In this document: one piece after another, positions 17,447 to 23,302 of the stretch
Numbering within the stretch: the stretch's first letter is position 1
How the letters are laid out: each line of letters begins with the position of its first letter
Assembly (NCBI RefSeq): GCF_900089775.1
Contig: NZ_FLOB01000008.1
Coordinates: 158,500 to 182,499, forward strand
From: Marinomonas spartinae
GTDB lineage: Bacteria; Pseudomonadota; Gammaproteobacteria; Pseudomonadales; Marinomonadaceae
Direction: 5' to 3'
DNA: 24,000 nucleotides
Translations under genes and position numbers: made by a program
The notes under the pieces: generated by a model
Told to the model about the DNA's origin: nothing
What the model saw: only the letters and a program-made list of their open reading frames with translations
Databases searched by the model: none

Positions 17447-17868
17447 GGAAAACACCTCTTTCAAATCATTTAAGTGACCACCATCGTAAAGACTCCACCC
17501 TCACACGTGAACCAAATTCTCTTCATAGAAAACCTGCATAAAATTCACTTTATTAGAAATGCTCGCTGTCACTCAACTGTGTCCATTAAAGACACCCTCC
17601 ATAAAACGAACAAGAGTCTAACGCCGTTGGATTATGAGAAAACGTATACTTTTTACTATGCATTTTTTGAAAATCAAAAACCTAACCAATTGAATTTAAA
17701 TAATTTTATTAAAAATTATTTTTTTGTTTTTTTATAATATTTTATTTTTCCCAAAAAAATTCATTTCAGTGTAAGAAATCCAAACCTCGTCTCGACTAAG
17801 GAATAGAACATCAATAATCACCTTCGTTTTATTAGAACAAAGAAGGTGAAAAACATTCAGAGTCCGAG

Positions 17869-18456
17869 GTGTGTTTGATAAACCATTTTTTACAAGAGAT
17901 TAGTGCTGGTCACCACGCTTACTGGTTTTTGATAGTAGGCATTATTTTGTTGTCTTACTTACTAGAAGACCTTGCCATTGTTACCGCAGCCTCTTTAGCC
18001 GCCCAAGATCAGCTGCCTATATCATTAGCCATGGTAGCAATCGCATTTGGCATTATTACCGGAGATTTTGGACTGTACTATCTAGGTCTACTCACACGAA
18101 AAGTTCGCTGGCTACGTTATAAAACGCTAACGAATAAATATTTTAAAGTAGTACAAAATAGACTGAGTACAAACGCATTTTTAAATCTCTTCATAATCCG
18201 ATTTACGCCAGGGTTACGGGCAATTGGTTTCACCTTAAGCGGTTTCTTTCTTATTCCATTGCCTATTTTTTTGAGCGCTGTGACCTTTGCTACCACACTT
18301 TGGACAGGCGTTGTATTTGGTGTTGTTTATTACTTAGGAACCCGAGCTTGGCTACAAGCAACACAATATCAATGGTTATTAATCCCCGTTGGTGTTGTGG
18401 CTTTATTAATGATTAATCGCATCATTCGTCGTTCTATTTCAAGAGAGTCATTATGA
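17869..18456 (+). CDS. DedA/VTT-domain (SNARE-associated) inner-membrane protein
   Basis: 195 aa with ~5 hydrophobic helices and the DedA-type motif RFTPGLRAIGFTLSGF. Only GTG 17869 or TTG 17875 are possible in-frame starts, because an in-frame stop lies at 17833. GAGG sits immediately upstream, so start-site choice is uncertain. Confidence 0.72.
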   Translation: MCLINHFLQEISAGHHAYWFLIVGIILLSYLLEDLAIVTAASLAAQDQLPISLAMVAIAFGIITGDFGLYYLGLLTRKVRWLRYKTLTNKYFKVVQNRLSTNAFLNLFIIRFTPGLRAIGFTLSGFFLIPLPIFLSAVTFATTLWTGVVFGVVYYLGTRAWLQATQYQWLLIPVGVVALLMINRIIRRSISRESL

Positions 18457-19586
18457 GTCCAACTATGAATGTTCAATCTATTCAAGAGAATAGAATTAAT
18501 GCAGGGATGCCAAGCCTAGAGATGGATTCTCATCGCGTGGTATCGCCTTTTGAATTCTATCCAACTTGGTTTTTTTATACGCCGGTTGTTTTGCAAAGTT
18601 TGTGGTTAGGACTGCGCTATGGAGATTTACGCTTACCCTTGATCGCTAACCCTAGCATCAAACTGAGCGGCATGGTTGGCGAATCGAAACATGATATTTT
18701 GCAATTAGCAGGACCGGTTGCCAAACAGTGGATTTCTCCCTACGTCACCATAACTAAAACAGAGGAATCGATTGATAAGCAGATGCAGCAGGCATTGCAA
18801 GTATTAAGCATGCAAAAACTGACTTTCCCCCTAGTGGCCAAACCGGATGTAGGATGTCGCGGGGTAGGAGTTAAATTAGTCAATAATAATCAGCAATTAA
18901 CAGAATACATTGAGTCTTTTCCAGACAAGGCCCGCTTTTTATTACAACAAAAAGCGCCTTACCAAGCGGAAGCCGGCGTTTTTTATGTTCGCTACCCTGG
19001 TGAAAAGACAGGAAAGATCATTTCCATGACATTGAAATACTCTCCAAGTGTTATAGGTGATGGTATTCATACGCTTAAAGAGCTCATTGAACGCTGCCCT
19101 CGTGCCGGACAATTAAGCCATCTTTATTTACCTCGCCACCAAGAAAAATTGGATTGGGTATTACCTGCCGGAGAAGAGTACCAATTGGCATTTGCTGGGA
19201 GTCATAGTCGCGGTTCCATTTTTAGAAATGGTAATCCATTTATTACCGATGCATTAAGCAAAAAGTTAGATGAGATCTTAAAAGACGTCAACGAGTATTA
19301 CTACGGACGCCTTGATATCAAATTTCAAAACATAAACCTATTTATGCAAGGTAAAAGCTTTACCATTCTCGAAATAAATGGCGCCAGCAGCGAAGCAACA
19401 CATATTTGGGATAGAACTACCAATCTAAAAGAGATCTTCTCAACACTTTTAGCTCAATATCGCATTTTATTTGAAATTGGTGCCAAGCAAAAAGCCAGAG
19501 GGTTTCGTCCTGACTCGATAATGTCGTTACTGACAGAATGGAAGAAAGAACGTGACTTAAGCAAACATTACCCTACAACAGATTAA
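18453..19586 (+). CDS. ATP-grasp carboxylate-amine ligase (D-Ala-D-Ala ligase/RimK-like fold) with an atypical hydrophobic N-terminal ~110 aa
   Basis: The ATG overlaps the DedA stop (ATGA). ATP-grasp signatures are FPLVAKPDVGCRGVGVKLV (Lys plus Gly-rich loop) and TILEINGASSEATHIWD (the E-x-N Mg ligands). The N-terminal segment SPFEFYPTWFFYTPVVLQSLWLGLRYG is unlike canonical pre-ATP-grasp domains. Confidence 0.8.
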   Translation: MSPTMNVQSIQENRINAGMPSLEMDSHRVVSPFEFYPTWFFYTPVVLQSLWLGLRYGDLRLPLIANPSIKLSGMVGESKHDILQLAGPVAKQWISPYVTITKTEESIDKQMQQALQVLSMQKLTFPLVAKPDVGCRGVGVKLVNNNQQLTEYIESFPDKARFLLQQKAPYQAEAGVFYVRYPGEKTGKIISMTLKYSPSVIGDGIHTLKELIERCPRAGQLSHLYLPRHQEKLDWVLPAGEEYQLAFAGSHSRGSIFRNGNPFITDALSKKLDEILKDVNEYYYGRLDIKFQNINLFMQGKSFTILEINGASSEATHIWDRTTNLKEIFSTLLAQYRILFEIGAKQKARGFRPDSIMSLLTEWKKERDLSKHYPTTD

Positions 19587-19608
19587 CCTTGTGCTTTGTG
19601 AGAGATTT

Positions 19609-20163
19609 ATGCAAACGAACTTAATAACTTTATCACCTGTTCAAAACAGAATGCGCACTTCTATTATTGATGGTTGTATTGAAACCTTACAACAAGGGCA
19701 ACAATTTCTATCATCGATCAGCAATAAAGAATACCAATTAGCGGCGCCGCCTTATGTAACCAGCTCGATTGGCAAACATTTTCGCCATTTATTGGATCTG
19801 TTTTATGCCATTTATAGCAAAAAAGACGTAATTGATTACAACCTACGTCGTCGTGACAGTGTGGTAGAGACATCTCGAATCGTCGCATTAGAAGAAATCG
19901 AGGCATTGATAGCATGGTTAGACAATCTAGACGAACATCAATTAGGCCGTAAAGTGTTGGTCTCCACTGAAGTCTGCTTGAACAGCACGCAAGTGTGCGT
20001 TGTGTCTTCTACCTTTGAGCGAGAACTGAGTTTTGTTGCACTGCATGCAACCCATCACTACGCGATGGCTAACGTCATTGTGCGTTCATTGAAGATCAAC
20101 ATAAGGGCGAACGACACATTTGGCTGCGCTCCAACAACCATATCCTATTTAAGAGGACAATAA
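19609..20163 (+). CDS. DinB/YfiT-like four-helix-bundle metalloprotein (putative)
   Basis: 184 aa from the ATG at 19609; the track GTG is at 19591. The His pattern GKHFRHLLD ... (about 90 aa) ... LHATHHYAM matches the DinB-superfamily H / H-x3-H metal triad spacing. The assignment rests on this motif and on size only. Confidence 0.5.
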   Translation: MQTNLITLSPVQNRMRTSIIDGCIETLQQGQQFLSSISNKEYQLAAPPYVTSSIGKHFRHLLDLFYAIYSKKDVIDYNLRRRDSVVETSRIVALEEIEALIAWLDNLDEHQLGRKVLVSTEVCLNSTQVCVVSSTFERELSFVALHATHHYAMANVIVRSLKINIRANDTFGCAPTTISYLRGQ

Positions 20164-20166
20164 ATC

Positions 20167-20910
20167 ATGTGCTCTGTGACCTGGCAATTAGAGGAAGAAG
20201 GCTACCAAGTCTTTTTTAATCGGGATGAACAAAAGCATCGGGCCTTAGGCCTACCACCTAGACAAATACGACTAGATGATGTCAGCGTGCTGATGCCCAT
20301 TGATCCCGTCGGTCAGGGTAGCTGGATAAGTGTGAATGAACTCGGCTTAACCTTATGCTTGCTCAACAACTATCAAGGGTTATGCCCCAAAGGTACGTTG
20401 ATTAGTCGCGGACAACTACTCAAGAGCCTCTCCTCGAAAACGAGCACAGTGGAAATTGAAAAGGCTTTTAACGCTATTGATCCAATGGCGTATGCCCCCT
20501 TCTTATTGGTTGCGTTTGATCCTGCCTTAACCAAACACAAAATGGACGTCATGGTGTTCGAATGGAATGGACAAGACACTGAGATCTACCCAAGGTCTGG
20601 GCCATTGTTTTCTTCCGGTGTGGATTTAGAGCGCGTGGTGGCACACCGGAAGAAAACCTATGAGGATTTTGTTGCAACGGGAAGACAGGGTTTCAGTCAA
20701 CTGCATGCCAGTCACCATGATGAGCATTTACATACGTCATTTTGTATGCACAGAAACGATGCCCACACCGTGAGTTTTACACAGGTAGTTGTGACGCCAA
20801 ATAGCCAAAAAATGAGCTATGTAGCTGGCTCGCCTTGCACACAATTAAATGAAAAAAACCTTATAAAACATAGCGTTTATTTACCATCGAAAAACGCAAT
20901 GGCGTCCTAA
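20167..20910 (+). CDS. NRDE-family protein (TANGO2/DUF833 homolog) with Cys2 N-terminus
   Basis: The protein begins MCSVTWQLEEEGYQVFFNRDEQKHR, carrying the family-defining Met-Cys start and the NRDE motif. GAGGA lies 9 nt upstream. The start is 4 nt after the previous stop. Confidence 0.8.
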   Translation: MCSVTWQLEEEGYQVFFNRDEQKHRALGLPPRQIRLDDVSVLMPIDPVGQGSWISVNELGLTLCLLNNYQGLCPKGTLISRGQLLKSLSSKTSTVEIEKAFNAIDPMAYAPFLLVAFDPALTKHKMDVMVFEWNGQDTEIYPRSGPLFSSGVDLERVVAHRKKTYEDFVATGRQGFSQLHASHHDEHLHTSFCMHRNDAHTVSFTQVVVTPNSQKMSYVAGSPCTQLNEKNLIKHSVYLPSKNAMAS

Positions 20911-20936
20911 TAATTTTATTAATAAAGGGGTTCAAT

Positions 20937-21377
20937 ATGAAAAAGTATGTATTGGTTTTAATGATGCTGCTGAGCGGCTTTGTCTACGCTAAAGACCCTA
21001 TTTATACCAGTTTCTTTAGCAACAAAGCGTTAGATGGCTACGATACCGTTGCCTATTTTACTGACCATAAAGCAGTCGAAGGCAGCAAACAATACACCAC
21101 CAAATACAAAGGTGCGGATTGGTATTTCTCATCGGCTAAGCATTTAGCGATGTTTAAGAAGACCCCTGAGAAATACGCGCCACAATATGGCGGTTATTGT
21201 GCATGGGCGATTGCCGCTAAAAATGATTTCGCCTCCGCCGACCCTCATCAATGGGCCATTGTGGATAGCAAGCTGTATTTAAATTATGACTCAGAGGTTA
21301 AGGCAAAGTGGGATAAAAACCCAAAAGGCTTTATTAAAATGGGCGACCGCAATTGGCCTAGCCTGATCAATAAATAA
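20937..21377 (+). CDS. Secreted YHS-domain protein (YHS-domain (seleno)protein family, Cys form)
   Basis: Signal peptide MKKYVLVLMMLLSGFVYA|KDP. YHS-type core GYDTVAYF...KYKGADWYFSS and the motif YAPQYGGYCAWA, with the Cys encoded by TGT. AAGGGG lies 6 nt upstream. Confidence 0.78.
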   Translation: MKKYVLVLMMLLSGFVYAKDPIYTSFFSNKALDGYDTVAYFTDHKAVEGSKQYTTKYKGADWYFSSAKHLAMFKKTPEKYAPQYGGYCAWAIAAKNDFASADPHQWAIVDSKLYLNYDSEVKAKWDKNPKGFIKMGDRNWPSLINK

Positions 21378-21388
21378 GGGGGCATAAA

Positions 21389-21850
21389 ATGAAAGCAAAA
21401 TTGGTGAAATATATCCCTACTGTGTTGATTGCATTTATCTTTGTACAATCGCTGTTTTTTAAATTTTCTGGCTCTTATGAGACCCAGTATATTTTTTCCA
21501 CCTTGGGAGCATGGTCTGGTTTCATTTGGTTTGCCCATTATGGTGCCTACCTTATAGGGACGTTTGAATTGATTGCGAGCATCCTGCTGTTTACCCGATG
21601 GCATGGCTTAGGCGCCTTGCTAAGCATGGGAATTATGACGGGGGCAATTTTCTTCCATCTGTTCACACCACTTGGAACCAAAATGCCAGAGTATGATGCC
21701 ATGGGGAACGTTGTTGGCAATGATGGTGGAGAGCTCTTTATCCTAGCGTGTCTTGTCTGGCTGTCGAGTGGTTTTTTAGCCATTCGGGACACTCTTTCAG
21801 TGGATGGAATCCTAAACAAAATGCAGCACAGAAATAAGCGTGTTTTATAA
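21389..21850 (+). CDS. DoxX-family membrane protein
   Basis: 153 aa with four hydrophobic helices and a DoxX-like pattern (LIAFIFVQSLFFKFSG, GTFELIASILLF, GIMTGAIFFHLF). AAGGGGG lies 6 nt upstream. The start is 11 nt after the YHS stop. Confidence 0.72.
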   Translation: MKAKLVKYIPTVLIAFIFVQSLFFKFSGSYETQYIFSTLGAWSGFIWFAHYGAYLIGTFELIASILLFTRWHGLGALLSMGIMTGAIFFHLFTPLGTKMPEYDAMGNVVGNDGGELFILACLVWLSSGFLAIRDTLSVDGILNKMQHRNKRVL

Positions 21851-21913: not shown

Positions 21914-23302
21914 TCAGCTCATGTCTGGCTCAAATAAACCACGTTTCATATAAAACTTGACCCAAACCGCAGCGATAAGGCTAATTACCAGCAATATCCC
22001 ACCGGTAATGCTATAAACCAGTTTCGTCATTTCTGGGGAAGGAGAATTGTTTAAAGCAATATAAACCATAGCCACAATCCCAAGAATCTGAGGAATTGGG
22101 AAAAATGGTGTTTTATAAGGACGATGTAGATCAGGAAGACGACGACGCAACACCATGACATCAATGTGCGCAACAATGTAGGCCAATAACCAGCTCGTTG
22201 TCGCAGCAATAACAAGGGTGATTAGTGAGTTAATGGAAAGAGACAAAAATGGGATCGCAATTAATACTGCCATTAGCACAATGCCTACCCATGGCGCACC
22301 AAAACGGTTAGACGCTTTCAACTGTGGGAAAGCCTGCTTTTGATGAGCCATACCATGCAACATTCTAGGAATAGAAGCCAGAACCGTGTTCATCGTACTA
22401 CAAGTAGCCGTTAGGGCCATAACAGTCGCAATGATCATTCCGCTTTTACCAAACACAGCATCCACGTAGTTCAAATATGGAATAGGCGCCGTCGTTAACG
22501 TTTCTACATTGACATACAAGCTTGCGCCATACACAAAGAGTAGAAATATAGTAAAGATGAAAAATAATGACCCATGCATTGCTCTTGGAATATTTTTGGA
22601 TGGATTCTTGACTTCATTGATCATTGGACAGATAAACTCAACCCCAACCATTAGCCACATAGCCAGTGCGACAAAACCAATAAAACTGCCGTTTAGAACC
22701 CCACCAAAACTCCAATCAACATGAGTGCCTGATAGCACCGGATGTGGCTGGCTAATACCCATCGCCGCAGATAAACCAACCGCAATCAATGCAAAAACCA
22801 AAACAAAAGCCAGTAAGTTTTGTACCTTCGCAAAGATGTCAGCACCCACTAAATTCGTCACACATAGGACCACCAAAATAATCATAGGTACGACTTTAGG
22901 CGGAAATACTCCGGGGAAGACCTGATCTAATACACCATCGACTAGAAACATTTCAACTGGAACAGCCAAAAAAGCCACAACGACGTAACCTGCAAATACA
23001 GACACAATGGCAGGGAAATGACCAATCGCCTTTTGCGTGTAAGTTGCCAATGTTCCTTCCTGTGGAAACATAAGCGACAGTTCAGAGAAACTCATGGCAT
23101 TAAACTGCGCAATAATCAATGCTGTGACCATTGCTGCAATAAATGACATTCCACCTAAACCAATCCCTTGTGTTGAAGAAATCATTGCTCCCTGAACAAT
23201 CACAAGCCCAATACAAATTGCCATCATAGTTGGCAAGTTCATCTTCTTAATGGGTTTTATGTTACTTGTTGAGTCCACTTGCGTGTGTGCTGTGTCGCTC
23301 AT
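21914..23302 (-). CDS. APC-superfamily amino acid/polyamine permease
   Basis: 462 aa with ~12 TM helices. The N-terminal pattern MAICIGLVIVQGAMISS...FNAMSFSELSLMFPQEG is typical of APC permeases. AGGAA lies 8 nt upstream of the ATG. Confidence 0.85.
   Translation of the reverse strand: MSDTAHTQVDSTSNIKPIKKMNLPTMMAICIGLVIVQGAMISSTQGIGLGGMSFIAAMVTALIIAQFNAMSFSELSLMFPQEGTLATYTQKAIGHFPAIVSVFAGYVVVAFLAVPVEMFLVDGVLDQVFPGVFPPKVVPMIILVVLCVTNLVGADIFAKVQNLLAFVLVFALIAVGLSAAMGISQPHPVLSGTHVDWSFGGVLNGSFIGFVALAMWLMVGVEFICPMINEVKNPSKNIPRAMHGSLFFIFTIFLLFVYGASLYVNVETLTTAPIPYLNYVDAVFGKSGMIIATVMALTATCSTMNTVLASIPRMLHGMAHQKQAFPQLKASNRFGAPWVGIVLMAVLIAIPFLSLSINSLITLVIAATTSWLLAYIVAHIDVMVLRRRLPDLHRPYKTPFFPIPQILGIVAMVYIALNNSPSPEMTKLVYSITGGILLVISLIAAVWVKFYMKRGLFEPDMS

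Follow-up and report, generated by a model that had tools for sequence, protein, structure and literature searches.

The ligase operon and its base composition

The window, a stretch of 24,000 nt of Marinomonas spartinae DNA, carries an operon in which genes for a putative DedA/VTT-family membrane protein and an ATP-grasp ligase are followed by genes for DinB-like, TANGO2/NRDE-family, YHS-domain and DoxX/MauE-like proteins (Table 1). The elements that the original prediction had read from the letters, namely the ligase reading frame, its ATP-grasp motifs, its aromatic N-terminal stretch and the ATGA overlap with the upstream gene, are all present: the ATG of the ligase (18453-18455) overlaps the TGA of DedA (18454-18456) as cattATGAgtcc. 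In the closest relatives, the DoxX gene is followed by that of the aminolipid acyltransferase OlsF, whereas here the next gene is convergent and encodes an amino-acid permease. The promoter-like element upstream of the operon is a consensus match only, promoter-like sites in this region being no more frequent than the shuffled expectation.

Table 1 Features of the operon in the window
Feature	Coordinates	Strand	Evidence
Sigma-70-like promoter match TTAAAA-18-TATAAT	17709..17738	+	Best match in the AT-rich spacer upstream of the operon; 10/12 consensus
Putative DedA/VTT-family membrane protein, 195 aa, ligase partner	17869..18456	+	ORF; 51% identity to VCA0651
DedA/ATP-grasp start/stop overlap ATGA	18453..18456	+	Sequence
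ATP-grasp ligase ORF	18453..19586	+	377 aa, one copy in the genome
Non-canonical N-terminal module, residues 30-79	18540..18689	+	Conservation, no Pfam match, all-helical AF2 model
Uncharged aromatic-rich helix, residues 35-54, putative interfacial anchor or lipid-binding element	18555..18614	+	Family composition, energy scales
ATP-grasp catalytic core, residues 80-377	18690..19583	+	K130, R286, D288, E307, N309; Foldseek
DinB-like protein	19591..20163	+	DinB E 1.5e-4, below cut-off
TANGO2/NRDE-family protein	20167..20910	+	PF05742, 28.8 bits, above cut-off
YHS-domain (seleno)protein-family member	20937..21377	+	NF041384, 157.8 bits
DoxX/MauE-like small membrane protein, last operon gene here	21389..21850	+	Weak MauE match

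A low GC content had been taken as a possible sign of foreign origin. The underlying hand counts for three 60-nt lines are correct (0.333, 0.267 and 0.50), and the GC of both the ligase gene (0.408) and the DedA gene (0.391) lies below the mean of 1927 long ORFs of the same genome (0.453 ± 0.031), as a recent foreign acquisition of the ligase gene or of the whole operon would have it. However, these deviations are only z = -1.44 for the ligase, at the 6.5th percentile, and z = -2.0 for DedA; the GC3 of the ligase gene (z = -1.0) also falls inside the genome spread, and its codon-usage likelihood is at the 68th percentile. Moreover, 42 of 60 congeneric species each have one homolog, at 52-97% identity, and synteny of the operon is retained in the nearest relatives. 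Base composition, codon usage and wide occurrence within the genus speak against the foreign-origin reading, to which we give next to no credence.

An ATP-grasp core behind a conserved aromatic module

Two motifs mark the ligase, VAKPDVGCRGVGV (residues 128-140) and LEING (residues 306-310). Alignments of 38-52 diverse family members show no variation at K130, the nucleotide-binding Lys, at G137, G139 and D288, or at E307 and N309, the pair of the Mg-binding E-x-N; R286, which together with D288 belongs to the GRxD block, varies little or not at all. The AF2 model displays an ATP-grasp fold (pLDDT 93.5, pTM 0.91), and a Foldseek search with this model returned 408 PDB matches at E <= 0.001, the top 50 listed being all ATP-grasp ligases. 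By contrast, Pfam scores lie just under threshold for RimK (20.9 bits vs a cut-off of 21), lower for Dala_Dala_lig_C (20.8 vs 24) and far below for ATP-grasp_3/4, so that the fold is assigned from the AF2 model and from the Foldseek matches. Together with the catalytic residues, the modelled fold places the protein in the ATP-grasp superfamily with high confidence. The Rossmann-like pre-ATP-grasp domain is absent from the model, in which residues 1-96 form helices only.

The best structural matches, which are also the best sequence matches among solved structures, are the G domain of cyanophycin synthetase (CphA; PDB 7ta5, 7txv, 7lgq) and the ATP-grasp half of the bifunctional GshAB (3ln6, 3ln7), with E values of ~1e-10 and TM scores of 0.46-0.50 on the query over ~285 aligned columns; the Foldseek probability is 1.00 to the CphA1/CphA2 G domains, to GshAB and to Ddl. 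CphA and GshAB form, at the expense of ATP, an acyl-phosphate on a peptide or aminoacyl alpha-carboxylate, which is then attacked by an amine. However, they are only 16-18% identical to the ligase, are soluble, act on peptide substrates, have other N-terminal domains and possess neither the uncharged aromatic helix nor a DedA partner.

Known ATP-grasp identities did not fit. Ddl has in common with the ligase the ATP-grasp fold and the nucleotide-binding motif, but the ligase lacks the Dala_Dala_lig_N domain and scores 15.3 bits on TIGR01205 against a cut-off of 245.65, while two true Ddl genes are found elsewhere in the genome (345 and 312 bits). The database name 'D-alanine--D-alanine ligase' is a misannotation, carried by hundreds of genomes including that of Vibrio cholerae, where VCA0650 is likewise so labelled. 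A RimK-type identity was also rejected, the TIGR00768 match (23.2 bits vs 143.4) spanning residues 112-165 only. Since RimK-type ATP-grasp enzymes modify proteins, the weak RimK-family profile matches could be read as a sign that the ligase adds amino acids to a membrane or exported protein encoded in the operon, either at its C-terminus or on a side chain, with DedA or the YHS protein as examples of such a target. This seems very improbable: the matches are below cut-off and limited to the nucleotide-binding strand region, an exported YHS protein would not meet a cytoplasmic ATP-dependent enzyme, and a conserved acceptor tail is not seen. Finally, the thiohistidine-dipeptide ATP-grasp enzymes (JACS 2026), a word-match lead, were set aside, the clusters outlined there centring on an NHISS enzyme, which is not encoded in the operon. 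Our best reading is that the ligase is a catalytically intact ATP-grasp amidoligase of a previously undescribed family.

The N-terminal region was defined from conservation and from the model. The original prediction held that, over the first ~110 residues, a non-canonical module replaces the usual substrate domain; the module is indeed non-canonical, but it extends over about residues 30-79. Residues 1-29 are a variable leader, and with residues 80-125 the protein already follows the canonical approach to the central ATP-grasp domain. The separate profile search proposed with that prediction, run on residues 1-110 alone, gave zero Pfam matches even at E <= 10, and no standard pre-ATP-grasp domain was found. 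Nowhere is the family better conserved than in this module, whose consensus is FEFWPxWxFYxPVxxxxxWLxLRYRxLxLPTxANPxIxxGGxxGESK; E34, P37, Y42, P44, N66, P67, G73, S78 and K79 reach at least 89-99% conservation among 140 representatives. Every one of these residues is found in the ligase of the window (E34...P37...Y42xP44...N66P67...G73...GESK79), whose aromatic stretch, FEFYPTWFFYTPVVLQSLWLGLRYG, corresponds to residues 33-57. The module is all-helical in the AF2 model (pLDDT 87-98), with a helix at residues 38-56.

Charged residues are rare in this segment throughout the family, with frequencies of 0-15% at position 35 and of 0-9% at each of positions 36-54, and aromatic residues are enriched (F at 35, W36, W39, F41, Y42, Y48, W49 and W51). 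E34 precedes the segment and R55/R57 follow it, and both flanks are basic. The figures speak against a transmembrane anchor: the best 19-residue Kyte-Doolittle mean is 0.94, below the threshold of 1.6 that just 14% of the family reach, and on the translocon scale dG amounts to +7.9 kcal/mol (family median +6.5), compared with +1.3 to +3 for the DedA helices. Wimley-White energies are -8.6 kcal/mol for the interface and -12.2 kcal/mol for octanol. The earlier description of this N-terminus as membrane-associating agrees with the favourable interfacial partitioning predicted here, but no membrane-spanning segment is predicted. The hydrophobic segment looks interfacial or monotopic rather than transmembrane, a prediction from composition alone. 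Positive-inside reasoning, applied to the basic flanks of the segment, the C-terminal tail of DedA (NRIIRRSISRE) and the linkers of fused proteins, leads to the same interfacial helix, and the aromatic core of the module would sit in the cytoplasmic leaflet or at the interface of the inner membrane.

Probable coupling of the ligase to a DedA partner

The tight arrangement of the two genes recurs in other loci. Of the 45 loci with separate genes, 15 allow a 4-nt overlap and 4 others a 1-nt overlap; nearly always, the stop codon of DedA and the start codon of the ligase overlap or lie within a few bases. The DedA protein of the window is unmatched by PF09335 even at E <= 10, but its V. cholerae ortholog VCA0651 matches this profile, the LLED, GDxxLY and RFxPGxR motifs are readable in the window protein, and phmmer searches with the latter retrieve the N-terminal domains of 83 fused relatives, those checked with Pfam matching PF09335 at E values of 1e-10 to 1e-16.

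DedA and the ligase are fused in 83 of the 150 best family representatives. These top 150 include 74 DedA-ligase fusions, 8 with an additional alpha/beta-hydrolase domain upstream of DedA, 1 in which a TANGO2 domain precedes the hydrolase, and 1 DinB-ligase fusion. At least 28 switches between the fused and unfused states are counted on the family tree, and fusion and fission appear from these sequences to have occurred repeatedly. In the AF2 model of a natural fusion, P0276, the domains fold well, but the linker (residues 190-223) is disordered and the pTM is 0.65, so that the model is uninformative on docking between DedA and the ligase. A DedA gene is missing beside the ligase in about one quarter of the loci. 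A 2023 survey of DedA subfamilies does not list the DedA-ligase fusion, and because the ligase domain escapes Pfam thresholds, surveys based on Pfam would take these common fusions for DedA proteins of one domain.

The proposal that the ligase acts at the membrane together with DedA is strengthened by the number of fusions and of switches, by the near-universal tight spacing and by the helical N-terminal module devoid of a pre-ATP-grasp domain. We conclude that the ligase is very probably membrane-associated and functionally coupled to DedA, with which it would form one unit whose genes would be translationally coupled here. MprF, an aminoacyl-phosphatidylglycerol synthase fused to a flippase that is not known to be a DedA domain, draws on aminoacyl-tRNA instead of ATP and an acyl-phosphate. 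The resemblance would be one of logic, a head-group enzyme on the cytoplasmic face coupled to a lipid translocator, and is proposed as an analogy and not as homology.

Linkage to OlsF and a proposed role in aminolipid modification

The neighbourhood of the ligase was surveyed in 78 loci of Gamma-, Alpha- and Betaproteobacteria, retrieved with a 12-sequence alignment. DinB-like and YHS genes each lie beside the ligase in 46 loci, TANGO2/NRDE genes in 32 and DoxX genes in 24. In 49 of the 78 loci, an OlsF-like gene lies at most 3 kb away on the same strand, and an OlsF-, OlsB- or OlsA-type acyltransferase gene within 6 kb in 61. The remaining 17 loci, including that of the window, have no acyltransferase gene within 6 kb.

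In M. piezotolerans, whose ligase is 85% identical, and in M. mediterranea, the gene order is DedA-ATPg-DinB-TANGO2-YHS-DoxX-OlsF. The present genome encodes the corresponding acyltransferase, OlsF2, on the same contig ~45 kb from the ligase (C13:129962-131698); it shares 79% identity with the OlsF encoded in the M. piezotolerans operon and is the ortholog of V. cholerae VCA0646. Among 60 congeneric species, the ligase and OlsF2 are jointly present in the same 42 and jointly absent from the same 18, counts that come from related species and not from independent events. We consider it probable that the ligase belongs to the OlsF2 aminolipid pathway, and an OlsF-type aminolipid is the likely substrate handled by DedA.

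The V. cholerae counterparts VCA0650 and VCA0651 are orthologs of the ligase (63-64% identical) and of DedA (51%), and lie upstream of vca0646-0649 in the same gene order and with the same 4-nt stop/start overlap as here. In V. cholerae, OlsF ends the operon and DoxX is missing, whereas here DoxX is present and OlsF is distant. VCA0646, whose gene is induced at low salinity, is a functional ornithine-lipid synthase, which alone yields plain ornithine lipid in E. coli, and V. cholerae at low salt was reported to contain ornithine lipid alone, without modified species (PMC12186959). All six genes (VCA0650-51, VCA0648-49 and VCA0646-47) co-vary in one RNA-seq data set (PMC7600106). Published work covers vca0646-0649 only, and deletion of these genes gave no phenotype in a colony cell-death assay. 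In the literature searched, VCA0650 appears in one row of an RNA-seq table only (PMC7600106), and searches for ATP-grasp enzymes with DedA, TANGO2 or ornithine lipid, or for membrane ATP-grasp enzymes, returned no description of the DedA-ligase module.

One activity of the expected type is on record. ATP-dependent transfer of taurine onto the carboxyl group of ornithine lipid is known biochemically, its gene having been missing since the 1970s (reviewed in PMC12971839). This taurine:ornithine-lipid transferase of Gluconobacter cerinus, which produces cerilipin and is known as an activity only, catalyses the type of reaction expected of an ATP-grasp ligase acting on the ornithine-lipid carboxyl (PMC12971839). 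The ligase is a testable candidate for an enzyme that decorates amino-acid lipids.

With modest confidence, we favour a reading in which the ligase works as an amidoligase at the membrane surface and modifies the head group of an aminolipid made by OlsF, the lipid itself being handled by DedA. OlsF2 would produce an ornithine-type acyloxyacyl aminolipid. Using ATP, the ligase would activate a carboxylate of the head group as an acyl-phosphate, the free alpha-carboxylate of the (lyso-)aminolipid being the most likely target; attack by an amine, be it an amino acid, a taurine-like compound or a polyamine, would then leave a head group longer by one amide bond, and the lipid would be presented or flipped by DedA. 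The DinB-like, TANGO2, YHS and DoxX partners may act on the same lipid or on its turnover. For the substrate, we give even chances that it is the lipid head group itself; that the reaction is specifically the amidation of a carboxylate is plausible but somewhat less secure. More tentatively still, the ligase might be the first ATP-grasp ligase with a membrane-lipid substrate, amidating the free carboxylate of ornithine-type aminolipids in a reaction of the cerilipin class, with DedA as a dedicated flippase and the TANGO2 and DinB-like enzymes acting on the same head group.

The neighbourhood and co-occurrence data would also apply to synthesis of a head-group precursor. In that case the ligase, at the membrane surface, would produce a soluble dipeptide or a modified amino acid, which OlsF2 would N-acylate, and DedA would only flip the finished lipid. 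The closest solved relatives, GshAB, Ddl and CphA, all join amino acids or peptides, and a dedicated second OlsF paralog would suit a different head group. However, since VCA0646 is sufficient to make ornithine lipid in E. coli (PMC12186959), a special precursor is not needed, and it is not obvious why an enzyme with a soluble substrate would keep an uncharged aromatic helix throughout the family or be fused to DedA time and again. We regard this alternative as unlikely.

Less likely again is that the substrate is another envelope molecule bearing a carboxylate or an amine, such as phosphatidylserine, phosphatidylglycerol, a polyprenyl-phosphate-linked intermediate or lipid A; joint membrane remodelling, and not a common substrate, would then explain the link with OlsF. 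DedA proteins are implicated in the flipping of undecaprenyl-phosphate and phospholipids, the 17 loci with no acyltransferase gene nearby would be accounted for, and some loci pair the DedA-ligase unit with an alpha/beta hydrolase only. Against this stand the perfect match in presence and absence between the ligase and OlsF2 in Marinomonas, where the other, housekeeping OlsF paralog is found in all 60 species, and the predominance of OlsF/OlsB/OlsA-type genes, by far the most frequent neighbours in three proteobacterial classes.

Returning to head-group amidation at the membrane surface, this reading, if true, would define a new pathway of aminolipid head-group extension and provide a concrete lipid substrate for DedA and TANGO2. 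The operon makes testable which enzyme class carries out ATP-dependent extension or modification of aminolipid head groups, what a defined DedA/VTT subgroup transports, and on which type of molecule bacterial TANGO2/NRDE homologs act, the latter bearing on the unsettled function of human TANGO2. In single polypeptides, the ligase is joined to a TANGO2 domain, through hydrolase and DedA domains, in P0239, and to a DinB domain in P0210.

Catalytic core and aromatic module of the ligase

The ATP-grasp motifs noted earlier are present in the ligase, a 377-aa protein, with VAKPDVGCRGVGV at residues 128-140 and LEING at residues 306-310. Profile matches were marginal and confined to the nucleotide-binding strand (RimK, 20.9 bits for a cut-off of 21; Dala_Dala_lig_C, 20.8 for 24; TIGR01205, 15 for 246). 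The TIGR01205 score, and the two genuine Ddl genes found elsewhere in the genome (345 and 312 bits), indicate that "D-alanine--D-alanine ligase", the database name of most homologs, is wrong. With the AF2 model (built on 52 sequences; pLDDT 93.5, pTM 0.91), all Foldseek matches listed were ATP-grasp ligases, the best being the G domains of cyanophycin synthetase (7ta5, 7txv; E ~1e-10, TM 0.46-0.50), with bifunctional GshAB next and Ddl after it. The closest solved relatives are enzymes that activate alpha-carboxylates of peptides. Diverse family members all share K130, D288, E307 and N309, and all or nearly all have R286, so the ligase should be catalytically active.

This intact core is preceded by a conserved, uncharged aromatic module instead of a substrate domain. 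Indeed, as anticipated from the sequence, an aromatic stretch is present at residues 33-57 and the usual pre-ATP-grasp domain is replaced: the AF2 model lacks the Rossmann-like domain and shows only helices before residue 97 (H32-35, H38-56, H61-64, H70-73, H79-84, H88-91). Residues 1-110, searched alone against Pfam, matched no family at E <= 10. Alignment of 140 representatives shows residues 1-29 to be variable, while the protein from residue 33 on ranks among its most conserved parts, with E34, P37, Y42, P44, N66, P67, G73, S78 and K79 conserved at 89-99% and a module (residues ~30-79) consensus of FEFWPxWxFYxPVxxxxxWLxLRYRxLxLPTxANPxIxxGGxxGESK. Charged residues occur in 15% of the family at position 35 and in 0-9% at each of positions 36-54, leaving an uncharged stretch rich in Trp, Tyr and Phe, flanked by E34 and, at the opposite end, by R55/R57.

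The N-terminus had been noted to look membrane-associating. Wimley-White energies of the aromatic segment (octanol -12.2, interface -8.6 kcal/mol) favour membrane partitioning, so that interfacial association is predicted. By contrast, a membrane span is disfavoured by a Kyte-Doolittle mean of only 0.94 and by +7.9 kcal/mol (family median +6.5) on a position-independent translocon scale, its values reportedly those of Hessa et al. 2005; for comparison, helices of DedA, the product of the adjoining gene, score +1.3 to +3 kcal/mol on this scale. We put the start of the module, provisionally, in the cytoplasm because the C-terminal tail of DedA (NRIIRRSISRE) is basic, the linkers of fused relatives are Arg-rich, and the residues following the module are basic. 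The aromatic helix is predicted to be monotopic or interfacial, in the cytoplasmic leaflet.

Repeated fusion to DedA

ORF reading of the window yields six closely packed genes on the + strand (17869-21850), and a terminator scan of the region found no convincing terminator between them. The operon is separated from a divergent MetE-like gene by a ~420-bp spacer of ~32% GC (17447-17868), where only one strong promoter-like match occurs, and stops at DoxX, after which comes a convergent amino-acid permease gene. As noted earlier, the ligase ATG overlaps the DedA stop codon (ATGA, 18453-18456).

Features of the operon, the separated aminolipid synthase gene OlsF2 (C13, contig that also carries the operon) and multi-domain relatives of the ligase (P-numbers, family representatives)
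Feature	Position	Strand	Length or architecture	Basis or note
Promoter-like match (best)	17709-17738		TTAAAA-18-TATAAT	in AT-rich spacer 5' of operon
DedA	17869-18456	+	195 aa, polytopic membrane protein	ORF
ATP-grasp ligase	18453-19586	+	377 aa	ORF
DinB-like protein	19591-20163	+		ORF, profile match
TANGO2/NRDE protein	20167-20910	+		ORF, profile match
YHS-domain protein	20937-21377	+		ORF, profile match
DoxX/MauE-like protein	21389-21850	+	small membrane protein	ORF, profile match
OlsF2	C13:129962-131698 (locus L087:1489-3237)	minus		64% identical to VCA0646
P0239			1121 aa, TANGO2-alpha/beta-hydrolase-DedA-ATP-grasp
P0210			543 aa, DinB-ATP-grasp
P0213/P0242/P0251/P0262			805-935 aa, hydrolase-DedA-ATP-grasp

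Searching 1.84 billion cluster representatives returned 2648 relatives of the ligase. An N-terminal domain homologous to the window DedA is present in 83 of the 150 best; the fusions in this set comprise 74 DedA-ligase, 8 alpha/beta-hydrolase-DedA-ligase, 1 TANGO2-hydrolase-DedA-ligase and 1 DinB-ligase proteins. These multi-domain relatives show that three of the five operon partners are fused to the ligase elsewhere. The ligase-domain tree has at least 28 switches between fused and unfused, versus ~43 with shuffled labels; fragments may account for some of the "unfused" entries. At loci with separate genes, DedA and ligase can overlap by 4 nt in 15 cases out of 45 and by 1 nt in 4, and in most of the others the ligase starts within ~25 nt of the DedA stop. 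DedA in cis is not obligatory, since OlsF comes straight after the ligase, with no DedA gene adjoining, at loci L040, L043, L045, L047, L049, L050, L052, L061, L067, L068, L070, L071, L074, L075 and L084, in lineages including Pseudohongiella, Woeseia, Aliagarivorans and Alginatibacterium.

The window DedA shares 51% identity with V. cholerae VCA0651 and, unlike that protein, does not match the Pfam VTT model. Its first predicted re-entrant segment contains an acidic LLED and its second RFxPGxR, features that accompany proton-coupled anionic-lipid transport according to a 2023 DedA subfamily survey. This survey lists fusions to rhodanese, PAP2 and pyridine-nucleotide oxidoreductase; the ATP-grasp fusion is absent from it, likely because the ligase domain falls under Pfam thresholds. 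In the AF2 model of one natural fusion, P0276, both domains fold and the linker is disordered (pTM 0.65), and the DedA-ligase interface is not readable from it.

A dedicated OlsF paralog linked to the ligase by gene neighbourhood and co-occurrence

Among the neighbours of the ligase at 78 analysable loci (Gamma-, Alpha- and Betaproteobacteria), the gene for an OlsF-like bifunctional acyltransferase is the most frequent, occurring at 49 of them, in every case on the ligase strand and no more than 3 kb away. Separate DedA (48), DinB-like (46), YHS (46), TANGO2 (32), DoxX (24) and alpha/beta hydrolase (13) genes come next. When OlsB-like (Acetyltransf_5) and OlsA/PlsC-like genes are included, an aminolipid-type acyltransferase lies within 6 kb at 61 loci. 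At the alphaproteobacterial MAG loci L054, L056, L062 and L066, hydrolase and DedA genes precede the ligase, a stand-alone PlsC/OlsA-like acyltransferase (277 aa) follows it, and the opposite strand repeatedly carries a fumarylacetoacetate-hydrolase-family gene in the vicinity.

In M. piezotolerans and M. mediterranea the same operon runs on into OlsF. Here OlsF2, 79% identical to the M. piezotolerans operon copy, is split from the operon and lies ~45 kb upstream, flanked by genes for a pyridine-nucleotide disulfide oxidoreductase and an M20 peptidase; in a 97%-identical sister species, ligase and OlsF2 are likewise on separate contigs. A more distant OlsF paralog is encoded on contig 33. Operon-type OlsF (at least 47% identical) occurs in exactly the same 42 of 60 congeners as the ligase, and the 18 without the ligase are exactly those without this OlsF, a perfect pattern drawn from related, hence non-independent, species. 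The distant paralog (31-35% identical) is present in all 60.

The ligase homologs in these 42 species are single-copy and 52-97% identical. In the database search, the best match was the M. piezotolerans protein (85%). A foreign origin had been suspected from three hand-counted GC values (0.333, 0.267 and 0.50), which were right. Compared with 1927 long ORFs of its own 4.72-Mb genome, the gene is nevertheless unexceptional (GC 0.408 versus 0.453 +/- 0.031, z = -1.44; GC3 z = -1.0; codon-usage likelihood at the 68th percentile), and nothing points to recent foreign origin.

A candidate role in aminolipid modification

In V. cholerae, the orthologs of DedA and the ligase, VCA0651-VCA0650, lie immediately upstream of vca0649-0646. 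VCA0646, the ortholog of OlsF2, has been shown by experiment to synthesize ornithine lipid and is induced at low salinity (PMC12186959), and vca0646-0649 are activated by HapR but described as otherwise "of unknown function" (bioRxiv 10.1101/2024.09.23.614608). VCA0650-51, VCA0648-49 and VCA0646-47 all decrease by ~2-3 log2 units in one RNA-seq comparison, in which copG, the copper ATPase VC2215, msrB, thioredoxin 2 and a glutaredoxin also decrease (PMC7600106). This is a hint that the VCA genes are regulated together with copper or thiol stress genes, in keeping with the YHS and DinB partners.

We infer that the ligase may sit at the cytoplasmic face of the inner membrane and turn a carboxylate of the OlsF2-made aminolipid into an acyl-phosphate, which an amine would then attack; the obvious candidate is the free alpha-carboxylate of (lyso-)ornithine lipid, which DedA would present or flip. 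ATP-dependent taurine transfer onto the ornithine-lipid carboxyl has been known biochemically since the 1970s, its gene never identified (PMC12971839). Against lipid modification, VCA0646 was reported to yield only plain ornithine lipid in E. coli and in V. cholerae (PMC12186959), and part of the 78 loci lack a nearby DedA or a nearby acyltransferase. The ligase might instead make a soluble head-group precursor, act on another envelope lipid, or carry out RimK-like protein modification. Our literature search found no paper tying an ATP-grasp enzyme to DedA, OlsF or aminolipid modification. Finally, the permease gene adjoining the operon is of the APC family (21914-23302, minus strand), and an APC permease gene also lies just upstream of the unrelated DedA-ligase fusion locus L003 (L003:3659-4966), which could be coincidence or a hint of an amino-acid substrate.
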